Source of the DNA: an uncultured Coxiellaceae bacterium
Lineage (GTDB): Bacteria; Myxococcota_A; Polyangia; Polyangiales; Houyiibacteriaceae
Reading direction: 5' to 3'
Assembly (NCBI GenBank): GCA_964194675.1
Contig: CAXMND010000064.1
Coordinates: forward strand, 33,809 to 97,808
Length of the DNA: 64,000 nucleotides
The notes beneath the pieces are model-generated. The model was not told the DNA's origin. It saw only the letters and a list, made by a program, of their open reading frames with translations, and ran no database searches. Positions 1,746 to 18,479 of this stretch are shown here, piece by piece (position 1 is the stretch's first letter; each line of letters opens with the position of its first letter). Both the position numbers and the translations under genes were made by a program.

Positions 1746-3233
1746 TTGCAGGAGCGGTTCCCGGCGCCGGAATTCCACTCCCCTCGGGGGAGCATCTTTC
1801 CGCCACCCGCGGGACGTCGCGTCTATTGCAATCGCAACTTGAGGCTCGACCAAATCAGCGTGGTCGGCTTCGACATGGACTATACGCTCGCGATCTATCG
1901 CCAAGCGGAAATCGACCGGCTCAGCATCGAAGCAACCCTCGTCAAGCTCGTCGAGCGCGGCTACCCCGAGGAGCTCCTATCGATGAAATACCGGACGGAC
2001 TTTCCCGTTCGAGGCCTGCTGATCGATCGGAAGCTCGGCAATGTGCTCAAGATGGACCGTTACCGTTACGTGAAGACCGCGTACCACGGGTTTCGCAAGC
2101 TCACGCGCGAAGAGCGTCGCCGAGCCTACCACACCCGACGCCTTCGCCCGGGCACGGAGCGCTACCACTGGGTCGACACGCTGTACGCGCTTTCGGAAGT
2201 CGCGGTCTACGCTGCAGTGGTCGATCACTTCGAGAACCGCGGGCGCACCGTCGACTACGGCAAGCTCTTCGCCGATGTCCGAGAGTGTGCGGATATCTCG
2301 CACCAGGACGGATCGATCCTCGACGTGGTTCTCGCGGACCTCCCCAAGTACGTGGAGCCCGATCCTGACATCGGCGTCCTGTTCCACAAGCTCCGCAGTG
2401 CCGGCAAGCGCCTTTTCGTCCTCACCAACTCAGGACCCGAATACACCAGCGCCATGATGTCGCATCTCCTCGATGACGCGCTTGACGAGTACCCCAGCTG
2501 GAGAAACTATTTCGACTACGTCATGACGGCCGCGAAGAAGCCGAGTTTTTTTACGGGCAACGCTCCCTTCGTCGACTTCGAAACCGAGGAAGAGACCACG
2601 AAGCCCAAACGCGGGCGAGTCTACTTGGGGGGCAACATCGCCGCTCTTCGACGCACCCTCGCCGTGCCAGGAGACGAGGTGCTCTACGTCGGTGACCACA
2701 TCTACGGCGACGTTCTTCGCGCCAAGAAGGAATCCGCGTGGCGCACCGCAATGATCATTCAAGAGATGGATGACGAGCTGCGGACTTTGCGCGAGCACGC
2801 GGTCAGCTTCGAACGCCACGATGCTCTCGAGGAGATGCGTATAGCGGTGCAGGACGAGCTCAGAGAGAATCAAGCGCGCTTGAAGGAAGTCGAGCGAGCG
2901 CTCAACAGCGACGCCCCGAACTCTCCCAAGCCGGCGCTCGAGGCCCAGCGATCTCGCCACCGTCGCTCGATCGACCGCCTTCGGGCCCAACTCCGCGATC
3001 TCGACGCGGAGAGCTCCGCCCTGAACGACACCCTCGACGAGGCTTTCCACCCGTTCTGGGGTTCCAGCTTCAAGGCGGGCAACGAGATCTCGAGCTTCGG
3101 CAACCAAGTCGAACAGTACGCGTGCCTCTATACGTCACGCGCCACGAACTTCACGCAATACTCGCCAATGCACTACTTCGAGAGCCCCAGGCACCGGATG
3201 GCGCATGAAGCGGGCACGAGCCCCGGCGCGTAG
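1746..3233 (+). CDS. HAD-IG family 5'-nucleotidase (cytosolic cN-II-like)
   Basis: RVYCNRNLRLDQISVVGFDMDYTLAIY carries HAD motif I (DxDxT). Also present: ...LFVLTNSGPEYT... and ...LYVGDHIYGDVLRAKK... The overall layout matches the 5'-nucleotidase (PF05761-type) family. Only a TTG start is available, 10 nt after the rpmA stop. Confidence 0.8.
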   Translation: MQERFPAPEFHSPRGSIFPPPAGRRVYCNRNLRLDQISVVGFDMDYTLAIYRQAEIDRLSIEATLVKLVERGYPEELLSMKYRTDFPVRGLLIDRKLGNVLKMDRYRYVKTAYHGFRKLTREERRRAYHTRRLRPGTERYHWVDTLYALSEVAVYAAVVDHFENRGRTVDYGKLFADVRECADISHQDGSILDVVLADLPKYVEPDPDIGVLFHKLRSAGKRLFVLTNSGPEYTSAMMSHLLDDALDEYPSWRNYFDYVMTAAKKPSFFTGNAPFVDFETEEETTKPKRGRVYLGGNIAALRRTLAVPGDEVLYVGDHIYGDVLRAKKESAWRTAMIIQEMDDELRTLREHAVSFERHDALEEMRIAVQDELRENQARLKEVERALNSDAPNSPKPALEAQRSRHRRSIDRLRAQLRDLDAESSALNDTLDEAFHPFWGSSFKAGNEISSFGNQVEQYACLYTSRATNFTQYSPMHYFESPRHRMAHEAGTSPGA

Positions 3234-3245
3234 CAGCGGCGGGGA

Positions 3246-3330
3246 CAGACAGCGTCAGCGCCAGTGTCAGCGCCAGCGCCAGTGCCAGCGCCCCCAGTGT
3301 CAGTGCCAGCGCCCGTGTCAGCGTCCATGT
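3246..3330. repeat. Period-6 tandem array, CAGYGY type (array 1)
   Basis: CAGA CAGCGT CAGCGC CAGTGT CAGCGC CAGCGC CAGTGC CAGCGC (CCC) CAGTGT CAGTGC CAGCGC CCGTGT CAGCGT CCATGT. Starts 13 nt after the 5'-nucleotidase stop and is intergenic. Confidence 0.9.
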
Positions 3331-3348
3331 GATCATTCTTGGGTCGCC

Positions 3349-3423
3349 GTGATTTCCTTTCTGAGCGGCTCGGCCCCCCCTCCCGTTTGTGAGGGGACCC
3401 GATCCACTCAGAAAGGAAATCAC
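3349..3423 (+). promoter_or_regulatory. 75-nt rod-like leader hairpin sequestering the SD of the first 4HB gene
   Basis: A perfect 17-bp outer stem pairs GTGATTTCCTTTCTGAG (3349-3365) with CTCAGAAAGGAAATCAC (3407-3423). An inner 7-bp helix with one mismatch pairs GGCTCGG with CCGATCC. The apical stem is CCCCTC(8 nt)GAGGGG (3377-3396). The 3' arm contains the AAAGGAAAT Shine-Dalgarno region and ends 2 nt before the ATG at 3426. Confidence 0.75.
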
Positions 3424-3425
3424 TC

Positions 3426-3752
3426 ATGGGACTCATCGTTCAACAGAAAGCACTTCAGGCAGCGAGGGGGCTTCAGCCTCTTCTGCCCATCATCAGGAAG
3501 CGCGACAAGGACCTCTTCGACCAGGTTCGGAGGGCTATGAATAGCGTCGTTCTCAATATTGCCGAGGCTGATGGAAATGACTCGGGGACGGCGAGAGCTC
3601 GCTTTGCGACTGCGTGTGGCTCAGCCAAGGAAGTCCGTGTGGGGCTCCAGCTTGCCGCAGCCTACGGCTACATCGGCCAAACCCGATTGGCGGAAGTGGA
3701 CATCGCGCTCGATGAGGTCTGCGCGATGTCCTGGAGGCTGTCGGGCCGTTAG
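3426..3752 (+). CDS. Four-helix-bundle protein (23S rRNA intervening-sequence protein / Avd-like family)
   Basis: 108 aa. The core DQVRRAMNSVVLNIAEADGNDSGTARARFATACGSAKEVRVGLQLA matches the pattern I know for the PF05635/TIGR02436-type 4HB family. The SD is inside the upstream hairpin. Confidence 0.8.
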   Translation: MGLIVQQKALQAARGLQPLLPIIRKRDKDLFDQVRRAMNSVVLNIAEADGNDSGTARARFATACGSAKEVRVGLQLAAAYGYIGQTRLAEVDIALDEVCAMSWRLSGR

Positions 3753-4081
3753 CCCCTCCGAGCCAAGCACCACGTAATGGCACACACCTCGTCGAGTTTC
3801 TCGTCGAGGTGGGTCGCCGTCTGTGCCTCGATGTACCCCCAGTCGCTTGCCACATCGAGTGCCGCCCGAACTTCCTTCGCGGACCCACACGCGGTGGCAA
3901 AGCGCGCCCGCGCATTCCCCGCATCACTCCCCCGAGCTTCCGCGATATTGAGGACCACACTCTGCGCAGCCCTCTTGAGCTGGTCTGCAAGCACCCGATC
4001 TCGTCCCTGCACCACCCGGAGGAGCGGAGCGAGCTCCCGCACAACCTTTCGGGCTCGGATGTAAACGTTAGTGGATTGCAT
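3749..4081 (-). CDS. Four-helix-bundle protein, paralog of the adjacent gene
   Basis: 110 aa. The core DQLKRAAQSVVLNIAEARGSDAGNARARFATACGSAKEVRAALDVA is nearly identical to its neighbour. AAGGAG lies 6 nt before the ATG. Its stop codon overlaps the stop of the + strand gene (TTAG at 3749-3752). Confidence 0.8.
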   Translation of the reverse strand: MQSTNVYIRARKVVRELAPLLRVVQGRDRVLADQLKRAAQSVVLNIAEARGSDAGNARARFATACGSAKEVRAALDVASDWGYIEAQTATHLDEKLDEVCAITWCLARRG

Positions 4082-4087
4082 TTTGTA

Positions 4088-4153
4088 CTCCTTGATTTGG
4101 GTTTGGGCCCCGTTGGCCTCACCCCGCTGTGGTCACAAACCCAAATCAAGGAG
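4088..4153 (-). promoter_or_regulatory. 66-nt leader hairpin sequestering the SD of the second 4HB gene
   Basis: A perfect 18-bp stem pairs CTCCTTGATTTGGGTTTG (4088-4105) with CAAACCCAAATCAAGGAG (4136-4153), with a 30-nt loop. On the minus-strand mRNA the 3' arm carries AAGGAG followed by TACAAAATG. Confidence 0.75.
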
Positions 4154-4156
4154 CGC

Positions 4157-4252
4157 CAGCGCCAGCGCCAGCGCCAGCGCCAGCGCCAGTGCCAGCGCCA
4201 GTGCCAGCGCCAGCGCCAGTGCCAGCGCCAGTGCCAGCGCCAGCGCCAGTGC
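4157..4252. repeat. Period-6 tandem array, CAGYGC type, 16 perfect units (array 2)
   Basis: (CAGCGC)x5, then two copies of the 30-nt block CAGTGC CAGCGC CAGTGC CAGCGC CAGCGC (4187-4216 and 4217-4246), then CAGTGC. Verified against the AS- and PA/PV-repeat translations in the ORF track. Confidence 0.95.
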
Positions 4253-4338
4253 CGGGCGCGGGTCCTTCAGGTGTTTTTTTTGTTCCCACGAGCCCGCTCT
4301 TGTCTATACTGCTGTCGCTAACGGAAGAGGAGCGCGAC

Positions 4339-4629
4339 ATGGCCAAAGCAGTAACGAAGAAGCGAACCACCAAGAAGGCCGCGAAGAAGCGAGCCGCGCC
4401 GAAGAAGGCCGCCAAGAAACGCGCGAGTAGCGCCGCTAAGCGCGCGAGAGCTGAAGTGGACGCATTGAGGAAGAGGGCCACCAAAGAGCTCGCCGCTCTC
4501 AGGAAGAAGCTCGACAAGGCAAGGCGGGACGCAAAGAAAGAAACGGCTGCCCTCAAAAAGAAGCTCACCGCCGCAACAAAGACGCTTCAAAAGAAAACAA
4601 AGAAAAAGCGACCCGCCAAGAAGAAGTAG
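4339..4629 (+). CDS. Lys/Ala-rich histone H1-like nucleoid-associated protein
   Basis: MAKAVTKKRTTKKAAKKRAAPKKAAKKRASS...KKTKKKRPAKKK. 96 aa, with KKAA-type basic repeats flanking a coiled-coil-like core (AEVDALRKRATKELAALRKKLDKARRDAKKE). GGAAGAGGAG lies 6-15 nt before the ATG. The upstream part of track ORF 4129..4629 is just the hexamer array read as PAPAPV. Confidence 0.6.
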   Translation: MAKAVTKKRTTKKAAKKRAAPKKAAKKRASSAAKRARAEVDALRKRATKELAALRKKLDKARRDAKKETAALKKKLTAATKTLQKKTKKKRPAKKK

Positions 4630-4719
4630 ACGCGCGGTAACGTCCAGCGACTGCGCCAGCGTGAACTCCAGGGGGGATGCTTGCGAAGCGGCACACAGGT
4701 GCTAAGTCGGGCTCCCCTT

Positions 4720-4792
4720 GGGGCGGTAGCTCAGCTGGGAGAGCACTACACTGGCAGTGTAGGGGTCCGGGGTTCGATCCCCCGTCGCTCCA
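4720..4792 (+). tRNA. tRNA-Ala (anticodon GGC)
   Basis: Hand-folded cloverleaf. The acceptor GGGGCGG/TCGCTCC includes the G3:U70 alanine identity pair. D arm GCTC-AGCTGGGA-GAGC. Anticodon arm CTACA-CTGGCAG-TGTAG, with GGC at 4753-4755. T arm CGGGG-TTCGATC-CCCCG. Discriminator A. CCA is not encoded (the sequence continues CCCC). Confidence 0.93.
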
Positions 4793-4803
4793 CCCCATGA
4801 AAC

Positions 4804-4836
4804 CGACGCTTTGCGTCGTCCGGGGGGCAAACCCCC
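4804..4836 (+). terminator. Two tandem GC hairpins just 3' of the tRNA (possible terminator or processing signal)
   Basis: CGACGC-TTT-GCGTCG (4804-4818) and GGGGGG-CAAA-CCCCC (4822-4836). No U-tract follows. Confidence 0.3.
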
Positions 4837-4840
4837 ACGT

Positions 4841-4943
4841 CCACTGGCACTGGCGCTGACACTGGCGCTGGCACTGACACTGGCATTGGCACTGGCGCTG
4901 GAACTGGCACTGACACTGGCGCTGACGCTGGCGCTGAGCACTG
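4841..4943. repeat. Period-6 tandem array, reverse-complement form RCRCTG, 17 units (array 3)
   Basis: CCACTG GCACTG GCGCTG ACACTG GCGCTG GCACTG ACACTG GCATTG GCACTG GCGCTG GAACTG GCACTG ACACTG GCGCTG ACGCTG GCGCTG AGCACTG. Opposite orientation to arrays 1 and 2. Confidence 0.95.
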
Positions 4944-4987
4944 GGACCGTCATCCCAAATTTTGACGTTTCAGGTTGGGGCAGCGAA

Positions 4988-6490
4988 ATGGAGGCGATGC
5001 GCACCGCTGTCCTATGCGCCCTCCTTCTCTCCTCGGCCTGCAGTGCCTATGACGACCTTCGGCTTCTCGATATCGAAGCGATCGAACCGCCGCAAATCGA
5101 GCCAGGAGGGACGCTCCGCATTCACGGAGAGGGCTTTCCGCTTGGGCGCTCCGCTGTCGTGAGCCTTCACGGAACCCTCCATCGACCGGGTGTCCCTGCG
5201 AGCCCCCTCGATGTACGCCTCCGTGCGGAGGTCCAGACCGAGACGCTCATCGAAGTCCCGATCGATGCCGAGTTCATGCGTTCGATCGGTGGTCGCGCCA
5301 CTTTGGAGGGGAGTCTACGGCTCATCTTTCGAGCCGCGAACGATCGCCGCGACGTGTTCGCTGAGCAGCCCGTTCTCGTTGACTTCCTACCCGACACCTC
5401 TGTTCAGCTTCGCACCGAGCCGAACGTGTACGAGCCGGTTCAATCTATCGACGGGCAGCACTTTGGTGTTGCGCTTTCGCGCGAAGAGTCTGGTACGATC
5501 GGTGTCCGCGTTGAGTCCGTCGATCCGCACAGCTTCGCGGCGACACAAGGAGTGCGTCCGGGCGACACCCTGGTTGGCCTCGATGGAATGCGCCTCTACA
5601 GTTGGCGCGATTTCTTCCCCGACCCGAGCCAAACCGAGTCGAGCGTGTGGGTCGCACGACCCGGCTTAGAGGGAGTGCATATGCTGCGCTGGTGGCACGA
5701 GGCGACCGAGCGTCGGGCCGATCCGCTGACGTTCGGCGTTTTGCTGCTCTTTGGGCTCCTGCTCGGGTGGCTTTCCCCGATGGCGCTCCGGCTCGGAAAG
5801 GCACCATCGGCCTCGATCGAGGTCTGGCTGACTCGACTGAGCCTCGTTCTCGTGTTCGTCGCGGCGCTCTTTTGTGCGTCCGCCCTGCAGTGGACGACGA
5901 TCTGGATCCTGGTCCTCGGATCGCTGGCCGCGCTCTTTTCGCTCGCCGCGCGAGACCGGGTTGCCATCACGAGCTTCGCGTTTGCCGTCCTCTCGACCCT
6001 CACGGTCATGCTCCTGGCTCGTACCGCAAGCATCGCGTCCATCGTAGCGGCCCAAGATGGGACGGTGCTCGATTGGTATCTTTTTCGGACGCCGGCGTCG
6101 ACCCTCGCCTTTGGTAGCTATCTCTACGCGCTCGGTGAGCTCGGCGGTCAGAACCGCCTCTCGGCCTCCCTCTATGCGTCCGCCGCCGCGGTTCTCGGAG
6201 CGGCGCTCTTCCTCGGTGGTTGGGAAACCACAGAGCCCGTTTTGGGCGTTTCACTGTTGGTTGCCAAGGCCGGCGCCATACTTCTAGGTGCGCGCTTCTT
6301 TCGGATGAGCCGCCAAGTCGCCATCTCGGCGTTGGGCCTCGGGCTCTCGCTTGCCCTCCTCGGAGCGTGGGCGGGTACCGACGTGCTGCTCTCCTATTGG
6401 AGCGCGCTCGCCGCGGGCTGCGTCGGGGCGGTGCTAGTCCGAGCAATCGTGCCGGCTTTGCACCGACCGTCGGTTCCTGCGGTCGCCTAG
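4988..6490 (+). CDS. Membrane lipoprotein with extracytoplasmic IPT-like and PDZ-like regions and a polytopic C-terminal domain
   Basis: I take the start at ATG 4988 (MEAMRTAVLCALLLSSAC, lipobox-like LSSAC). The upstream 59 codons of the track ORF are the hexamer array read as LALALT. QIEPGGTLRIHGEGFPLG looks IPT/TIG-like, and QGVRPGDTLVGLDGMRLYSWRDF looks PDZ-like. The last ~270 aa are multi-TM. Function unknown. Confidence 0.5.
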   Translation: MEAMRTAVLCALLLSSACSAYDDLRLLDIEAIEPPQIEPGGTLRIHGEGFPLGRSAVVSLHGTLHRPGVPASPLDVRLRAEVQTETLIEVPIDAEFMRSIGGRATLEGSLRLIFRAANDRRDVFAEQPVLVDFLPDTSVQLRTEPNVYEPVQSIDGQHFGVALSREESGTIGVRVESVDPHSFAATQGVRPGDTLVGLDGMRLYSWRDFFPDPSQTESSVWVARPGLEGVHMLRWWHEATERRADPLTFGVLLLFGLLLGWLSPMALRLGKAPSASIEVWLTRLSLVLVFVAALFCASALQWTTIWILVLGSLAALFSLAARDRVAITSFAFAVLSTLTVMLLARTASIASIVAAQDGTVLDWYLFRTPASTLAFGSYLYALGELGGQNRLSASLYASAAAVLGAALFLGGWETTEPVLGVSLLVAKAGAILLGARFFRMSRQVAISALGLGLSLALLGAWAGTDVLLSYWSALAAGCVGAVLVRAIVPALHRPSVPAVA

Positions 6491-18329: not shown

Positions 18330-18479
18330 CAGCGGCAGTGACAGCGCCAGCGTCAGTGACACTGACAGTGTCAGCGACAGCGCCAGTGACAGCGGCAGTG
18401 TCAGTGTCGGTGCCAGTGTCGGTGCCAGTGTCGGTGTTTGTGATCGAGCACGAGCACGAGTACGACCACGACCACGACT
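18330..18479. repeat. Composite period-6 array, 25 units in one phase (array 4)
   Basis: There are 19 CAGYGN-type units: CAGCGG CAGTGA CAGCGC CAGCGT CAGTGA CACTGA CAGTGT CAGCGA CAGCGC CAGTGA CAGCGG CAGTGT CAGTGT CGGTGC CAGTGT CGGTGC CAGTGT CGGTGT TTGTGA. Six ACGASC-type units follow: TCGAGC ACGAGC ACGAGT ACGACC ACGACC ACGACT. The array starts 5 nt after the dctM stop. Confidence 0.95.

Follow-up and report, generated by a model that had tools for sequence, protein, structure and literature searches.

We found that a small four-helix-bundle (4HB) gene in the 64-kb stretch of DNA analyzed here (the window) is preceded by a long hairpin that takes up its ribosome-binding site. This leader hairpin is real and under strong selection, no published description of it was found in the literature that we searched, and it most likely works as a translational lock on 4HB cassette genes. 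Alignments of related loci indicate that compensating mutations have preserved it in about 100 related gene copies of marine myxobacteria. PF05635 4HB genes are among the most abundant uncharacterized small genes of bacteria; they have been described chiefly as passengers within rRNA intervening sequences (IVSs) and as the Avd proteins of diversity-generating retroelements (DGRs).

The Shine-Dalgarno (SD)-locking hairpin (hairpin 1) lies at positions 3349 to 3423 on the plus strand, as delimited by folding and covariation. It is made up of a 5′ arm carrying the anti-SD (3349 to 3373), an apical helix with its loop (3374 to 3398), and a 3′ arm carrying the SD (3399 to 3423). As a first-pass annotation of this DNA had described, the sequence GTGATTTCCTTTCTGAG (3349 to 3365) is fully complementary to CTCAGAAAGGAAATCAC (3407 to 3423), which gives a 17-bp perfect stem. 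We find that the helix continues inward through GG/CC, TCGG/CCGA, and then the apical CCCCTC/GAGGGG, with one C·A and one C·U mismatch. The total helix length, annotated as about 30 bp, came to ∼29 bp. The 3′ arm is the ribosome-binding region and ends 2 nucleotides (nt) before the ATG at 3426; the SD of 4HB gene 1, AAGGAA (3413 to 3418, plus strand, 7 nt 5′ of the ATG), is fully paired. The annotated description of the hairpin as AT-richer than the genome fits the outer 17-bp stem (∼41% GC by direct count) and does not fit the GC-rich inner stem; for the hairpin as a whole, the figures are 58.7% GC versus 61.8% for the window.

Folding energies bore out the structure. The 75-nt hairpin alone folds with −48.0 kcal/mol, and in a 121-nt context the energy is −57.8 kcal/mol (z = −6.3), a value that none of 200 dinucleotide shuffles equaled. 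The probability that SD 1 is unpaired is 2 × 10−5 to 3 × 10−3, and its forced opening costs 15.7 kcal/mol. No inverted repeat in the 64-kb window is longer than hairpin 1 and the hairpin of a paralogous gene described below (hairpin 2). By our estimate, the chance that 64 kb of sequence contains one inverted repeat of 17 perfectly matched bp within a span of 150 nt is ∼6 × 10−4. Hairpin 1 is not due to chance.

The hairpin is part of a module in which a hexamer array, a hairpin, a 4HB gene, a convergent 4HB gene, a second hairpin, and a second hexamer array follow each other. Array 1, (CAGYGN)n (3250 to 3323, plus strand; Tandem Repeats Finder), starts near-immediately 3′ of the stop codon of a 5′-nucleotidase gene and leads into a 26-nt spacer (3323 to 3348, plus strand; conserved consensus cTTGTGACnnnGACTTGGTCATC) that holds a small hairpin, P1 (∼3329 to 3347, plus strand; GUGAUC/GGUCGC, with two G·U pairs). 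Hairpin 1 is followed by 4HB gene 1 (3426 to 3752, plus strand; 108 amino acids [aa]), assigned to PF05635 (Pfam E = 1.2 × 10−13) and to NCBIfam TIGR02436. 4HB gene 2 (3749 to 4081, minus strand; 110 aa; Pfam E = 4 × 10−17) is a convergent paralog, 55% identical to gene 1 by BLASTP, and the stop codons of the two genes overlap. Beyond it lie hairpin 2 (4088 to 4153, minus strand), recognized as an inverted repeat and by its fold, and array 2, (AGCGCC)17 (4152 to 4253, plus strand; Tandem Repeats Finder), which abuts hairpin 2. Both arrays are on the same DNA strand, with one 5′ of each hairpin.

The host site of the module is the 3′ untranslated region (UTR) of a cN-II-type 5′-nucleotidase gene (1746 to 3233), which itself comes after rplU-rpmA. 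On the downstream side, the neighbor is a gene for a 96-aa Lys/Ala-rich protein (4339 to 4629) with no Pfam or NCBIfam match. DGR Avd loci have an adjacent reverse transcriptase and template and variable repeats; the genes beside the module here are those of the 5′-nucleotidase (recognized by Pfam), the protein without a Pfam match, tRNA-Ala, and a membrane protein. An Rfam scan of positions 3100 to 5000 returned tRNA-Ala alone above the threshold and no rRNA. The tRNA-Ala(GGC) gene (4719 to 4795) and its promoter are inverted relative to all relatives that keep the gene order (L081, L124, L092, and L084), and the inverted piece (4640 to 4944) is bounded by a three-unit hexamer mini-array (∼4655 to 4675) and by an array on the opposite strand (4842 to 4944). 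This arrangement suggests that the piece was flipped between two arrays in inverted orientation. Arrays of this hexamer type also occur without any 4HB gene, both in the window (18330 to 18477) and in a related locus (L118, 4951 to 5147).

The leader of gene 2 follows the same design with another sequence. Its SD, AAGGAG (the complement of 4088 to 4093), lies in the 3′ arm of hairpin 2, 6 nt before the ATG; the hairpin folds with −36.0 kcal/mol, and opening the SD costs 12.0 kcal/mol. What the stems of hairpins 1 and 2 have in common is limited to the anti-SD core CTCCTT and a 5′ arm rich in T and G. We found 29 hairpins homologous to hairpin 2 (family 2), with stems of 22 to 37 bp that are 94% Watson-Crick paired and comprise 23 distinct stem sequences; these pairs were counted arm by arm, and the MAFFT alignment A2, in which two clades were misaligned, was not used. 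The distance from the palindrome to the start codon is fixed at 2 nt in the homologs of hairpin 1 (family 1) and is ∼6 nt in most of family 2. As far as the compared leaders tell, the placement of the SD in the 3′ arm is kept across two families whose stems are largely different. An iterated HMM search of the fetched loci gave no third 4HB subfamily, only these two families and antisense-frame artifacts.

A scan of one genome per species yielded 146 relatives of gene 1, from which we retained the best 80 loci. The best 80 of 146 are nearly all labeled Myxococcota, Polyangiales, or Deltaproteobacteria, and a few are labeled “uncultured bacterium,” Gemmatimonadales, or Thermodesulfobacteriota; no cultured carrier of the module was found among the relatives. 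Three metagenome-assembled genomes (MAGs) hold at least 12, at least 8, and at least 7 copies, respectively, among these best 80. The unit that recurs in this set runs array, hairpin, p1, convergent p2, hairpin, array, and most loci have the pair. Same-strand arrays flank the 4HB genes in nearly all of the best 80 loci, and because the arrays around a 4HB pair are always on one strand, base pairing between the two is impossible. There are also units with p1 alone, and loci with a lone 4HB gene keep the hairpin. At nearly every one of the best 80 of 146 loci, a hairpin stands directly before the ATG. The family 1 hairpins (n = 75), which come from loci in Polyangiales MAGs, have a median stem of 29 bp, a median energy of −57.8 kcal/mol, and 65 distinct 5′ arms.

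The closest relatives that keep the gene order have an empty site at this position (L081, 86% identical, and L124, 84% identical), with the order 5′-nucleotidase, Lys-rich gene, tRNA-Ala, and membrane protein preserved around it. Empty sites measure 60 to 120 nt between the stop codon and the promoter of the next gene; in the window, the module sits between the host stop codon and a T-run. The L124 genome has at least eight modules at other sites, and in a more distant relative (L117) a 4HB pair lies close to this site but points the other way. On this comparison, the module is a multicopy insertion that is gained and lost and that is absent from this site in the closest relatives. The empty site of L124 (4335 to 4350) contains two hexamer units (GGTGCCAGTGCCGG) right 3′ of the stop codon, which may be either the footprint of a lost module or the seed of an array. 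Insertion into the loop of a terminator was considered and rejected, as folds of the empty site and of the joined flanks gave no clear terminator hairpin split by the module.

To assess selection on the pairing, we aligned 71 family 1 loci (alignment A1), from which RNAalifold recovered the hairpin with 23 pairs. In this alignment, 97.0% of the cells at paired positions are paired, and 11 of the 23 pairs have changes on both sides. Double-changed cells number 184, compared with 48.5 in shuffles (0 of 500 reached 184) and 8 to 22 when the partner columns were slid. Positions adjacent to the SD covary with the anti-SD arm (C-G, 58; U-A, 10; G-C, 2). The outer SD/anti-SD stem is the best-conserved part of the hairpin, whereas the mid-stem diverges at ∼70% of the rate of third codon positions and retains its complementarity. 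The apical region of family 1 (for example, in L012 to L041) was seen by inspection of A1 to contain a mini-hairpin, GGGC-(3 to 4 nt)-GCCC, followed by a conserved TTYYGGGGAA; a conserved apical loop over a variable stem hints at a strand-specific recognition element.

The proteins are under selection as well. All 70 homologs tested have intact open reading frames (ORFs), with a divergence of 0.117 at codon positions 1 and 2 versus 0.452 at position 3, which indicates that the 4HB proteins are under purifying selection; copies with broken ORFs are few among the loci. The outer stem is more conserved than codon positions 1 and 2, implying that the constraint on it is stronger than that on the protein.

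The hairpin is also strictly tied to the 4HB start codon. We scanned 185,579 species genomes with the outer-stem pattern GTGATCTCCTTT-N28-58-AAAGGAGATCAC and obtained 59 matches; downstream of 49 of these, tblastn identified a 4HB gene. Nine further matches have the 4HB start TCATGGGACT (or TGATGGGACT), and most of these lie at the ends of contigs or loci, with one being a partly duplicated copy. In total, 58 of the 59 matches are at a 4HB start codon, and the sole exception is a palindromic contig end. This excludes a stand-alone REP- or MITE-like palindrome. It also disposes of the suggestion in the first-pass annotation that the hairpin could be a small palindromic insertion, as the unit that is inserted is the ∼1-kb two-gene module.

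Other known kinds of elements were considered and set aside. The −48-kcal/mol fold with its 17-bp perfect stem excludes an RNA thermometer (ROSE or fourU), since there is no weak, mismatched SD helix. An intrinsic terminator is excluded because no terminator was called at 3349 to 3423 and the stem is followed by TCATGGG, with no U-tract. The Rfam scan gave no match to the leader hairpin at the gathering score, only subthreshold miRNA-precursor look-alikes that match any long hairpin, and membership in a known RNA family was rejected. Integron attC sites are characterized by RYYYAAC/GTTRRRY outer boxes, by extrahelical bases, and by a location 3′ of cassettes in an array beside intI; judged by inspection, the outer boxes here are GTGATYTCC/GGARATCAC and the copies are dispersed singly or in pairs, and attC was rejected. 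On the opposite strand, the palindrome creates another SD and in many cases an ATG, but the resulting ORFs vary from 3 to >130 codons, run through the array in varying frames, and are missing at many loci, and therefore they do not represent a gene. Translational coupling to an upstream ORF was dismissed because TGATG overlaps are confined to a subset of family 2 plus two or three family 1 members.

Whether the hairpin acts at the level of RNA or of DNA is a question on which the strand evidence from these comparisons is mixed, pointing both ways. The constant location of the SD in the 3′ arm, the fixed distance to the start codon, and the occurrence of this design in two families with largely different stems point to RNA. 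In 63 of 72 loci, the sense strand gives the more stable fold of the spacer hairpin P1 (mean energies of −5.0 kcal/mol for sense, −2.9 for antisense, and −3.4 for shuffled sequences), suggesting that the region upstream of the 5′ arm is transcribed. P1 lies one base 5′ of the SD hairpin and has clade-specific sequences (GUGAC/GUCAU, GUGAUC/GGUCGC, and AGCGUUC/GAGCGCU). A 136-nt contig from an oligo(dT) RNA library, for which carried-over DNA is a possible source, matches L062 (1397 to 1532) with 98.5% identity and covers the spacer, both arms, and 32 nt of the ORF, with transcript ends absent from it. The yield of four metatranscriptome runs was limited to a scattering of gene 2 and array relatives.

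In the other direction, G·U pairs make up only 6 of the 1,608 cells in A1, which is too few for a typical RNA helix and counts against a lock made of RNA. The mismatches of family 1 are also asymmetric: 59 are wobbles of the antisense type (50 C·A and 9 A·C) versus 15 of the sense type (15 U·G and no G·U), or, by our own count of independent events, ∼27 versus ∼14. The antisense fold of family 1 is the more stable one in 65 of 75 loci, while family 2 has no strand bias in energy (13 loci each way). The asymmetry in family 1 points to a constraint on DNA or on both strands or to homogenization of the palindrome by template switching; it would fit template-switch homogenization of long quasipalindromes, or folding in both sense and convergent antisense transcripts.

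These features could mean that the palindrome serves primarily as DNA, as a cruciform or as a hairpin of single-stranded DNA with a role in recombination, replication, or movement of the cassette, or that it maintains itself by template-switch correction, with the overlap with the SD being secondary. The near-strict Watson-Crick pairing, the fast yet still complementary mid-stem, and the excess of antisense-type wobbles with the more stable antisense fold would all be in keeping with such a role, as would the gain and loss of the module as a unit. We nevertheless regard it as quite unlikely. The SD is covered in every case, in two families and at a fixed 2 nt or ∼6 nt from the start codon; the outer-stem search placed 58 of 59 occurrences at a 4HB gene; and the stretch that is conserved best is exactly the SD/anti-SD stem. 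The strand asymmetry does not extend to family 2. The genes adjacent to the module are those of the 5′-nucleotidase, the protein without a Pfam match, the membrane protein, and tRNA-Ala.

A need to fold on both strands would explain the strict Watson-Crick pairing if the hairpin were a two-way RNA barrier that protects the 3′ end of the upstream host mRNA and, in its antisense form, ends or stabilizes the convergent 4HB transcript. The palindrome does fold on both strands, the module comes directly after host stop codons, and the convergent genes have overlapping stops with no terminator between them. We consider this reading very unlikely, as there is no U-tract after the stem on either strand, the hairpin is kept in loci that have a single 4HB gene and no convergent partner, and the constant location of the SD inside the stem is left unexplained.

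On balance, we lean toward the reading that the hairpin is a conserved cis-acting leader of the 4HB gene, acting in the mRNA as a translational lock. The claim of the first-pass annotation that the helix locks the SD gains support from the thermodynamics, from the covariation in 71 loci, including SD-adjacent positions, and from the design of the paralog. That the hairpin acts as RNA, and how it is opened, we infer. A transcript with both arms would hold the SD in a ∼29-bp helix and block the initiation of translation by ribosomes. By the established relation reported by de Smit and van Duin, each 1.4 kcal/mol changes translation about tenfold, and at opening costs of 12 to 16 kcal/mol spontaneous initiation should be negligible. 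One such locked transcript would be the read-through from the upstream rplU-rpmA-5′-nucleotidase genes. Expression would become possible only after loss of the 5′ arm or cleavage of the helix.

The main rival to the translational lock is insulation by an internal promoter, similar to that of IS10 and IS50, in which a promoter of the element's own, in or after the 5′ arm, gives an unlocked mRNA and read-through RNA with both arms is silenced. The upstream host gene is codirectional with the 4HB gene in 49 of 65 loci, where read-through could arise, and divergent in 16 of 65; at the latter loci, a promoter of the element's own is needed somewhere, possibly inside the element. The location of the module within a host 3′ UTR, between the stop codon and the terminator T-run, is likewise compatible with insulation. 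A box, GACTTGGnnATCG, is common to both paralog leader families directly 5′ of the anti-SD arm (∼3335 to 3348 in the window; L009 to L077) and could be part of a promoter; gene 2 of the window lacks it because array 2 abuts hairpin 2. However, no sigma-70-like promoter was found at 3100 to 4400 on the gene strands, and no sigma-70 or sigma-54 boxes could be fitted by eye to the conserved spacer. The −10 position, placed by eye 17 nt 3′ of the shared box, falls in the hypervariable mid-stem. The sense-strand bias of P1 and the RNA-library contig across both arms, the latter with the possibility of carried-over DNA, suggest that the region of the 5′ arm is itself transcribed. We regard insulation as unlikely.

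For the translational lock, the likeliest opener would be a double-strand-specific RNase (RNase III) cutting the GC-rich mid-stem. It is reasonable to compare the ∼29-bp helix with a classical RNase III substrate, which has this length. The SD is held in an AU-rich outer stem of 12 to 17 bp, and the inner stem is GC-rich; after cleavage, the short AU-rich SD/anti-SD duplex would fall apart and free the SD, and the cut would at the same time separate the 4HB mRNA from the host read-through RNA. By analogy, opening probably proceeds by RNase III-type cleavage, as in the 23S IVSs. A bolder extension of this idea, to which we give little chance, is that the SD hairpin is the functional equivalent of an IVS stem, an RNase III gate that would make a whole class of enzyme-free, gained-and-lost 4HB cassettes translatable only after double-stranded RNA processing, with the mid-stem serving as a duplex barcode private to each copy. 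If this were true, the barcode could prevent cross-pairing between copies or be released as a copy-specific small duplex RNA.

In a large lineage of marine and sediment myxobacteria, nearly every copy of the gene has a selected ∼29-bp hairpin over its ribosome-binding site. This points to a common rule by which 4HB genes would be silent in host transcripts until a double-strand-specific event frees them, and it makes the question of what 4HB genes are for, and whether the protein is ever made, directly testable. The family is also an unusually clean natural case of very fast compensatory evolution in a long helix.

Early mRNAs of phages lambda and T7 and the adhE mRNA of E. coli have leader helices that occlude the ribosome-binding site until RNase III cleavage frees it. 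Those helices are imperfect and belong to single genes, whereas the present ones form a covarying family on ∼100 related copies, and their cleavage is proposed by analogy. In the IS10 and IS50 transposase genes, an upstream segment pairs with the ribosome-binding site and guards against host read-through (fold-back inhibition). The present element resembles them as a mobile-type element with an upstream segment that pairs with its own ribosome-binding site, but it carries 4HB genes in place of a transposase gene, it has a perfect and far longer stem, the search for a promoter-like site found none, and its 5′ arm seems to be cotranscribed with the ORF. REP- and ERIC-type palindromes are likewise multicopy intergenic hairpins with compensatory changes, but they differ from the family 1 hairpin in its fusion to the 4HB start codon.

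Among nine distant PF05635 plasmid genes that we inspected, the ribosome-binding region lies in a long helix in three. In Nostoc (L194) and Picosynechococcus (L196), a purine-rich upstream SD array pairs with an array 3′ of the stop codon, and in Gemmatirosa (L199), the local pairing partners of the SD are CTCCT words upstream of it. The Azospirillum case (L200) is a true 23S IVS, and the other five have flanking arrays or nothing that covers the SD. Like the module, the Nostoc and Picosynechococcus plasmid cassettes have a small 4HB gene between short-period repeat arrays, wedged among host genes; unlike theirs, the hexamer arrays here are on the same strand and unable to pair, and a dedicated local hairpin does the occluding. 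Judging by this small sample, PF05635 genes may repeatedly use long helices to occlude their ribosome-binding sites, and the local 5′ hairpin would be the Polyangiales variant. 4HB genes with word arrays were also seen inside CRISPR-Cas operons, between cas10 and cmr3 on the Picosynechococcus plasmid (L196) and between cas6 and cas4 on a Pseudanabaena plasmid (L197).

The closest parallel in the protein is with the 23S rRNA IVSs of Coxiella burnetii and Leptospira (S23p ORF), which also carry a PF05635/TIGR02436 gene. RNase III cleaves the Coxiella IVS in the middle of its 28-bp stem (PMC4990558). In both systems the stem is near-perfect and of the same size (the median here is 29 bp), and the cassette is carried in a host transcript. 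The present element, in contrast, is not in rRNA but between a 5′-nucleotidase gene and a small Lys-rich gene, and it consists of a convergent gene pair flanked by same-strand hexamer arrays. In the IVS, the two flanks of the ORF pair with each other and leave the ORF in the loop, whereas here both arms are 5′ of the ORF (3349 to 3423 versus 3426 to 3752). Finally, the leader described here has a good SD, while the Coxiella IVS ORF has a poor one and is apparently untranslated.
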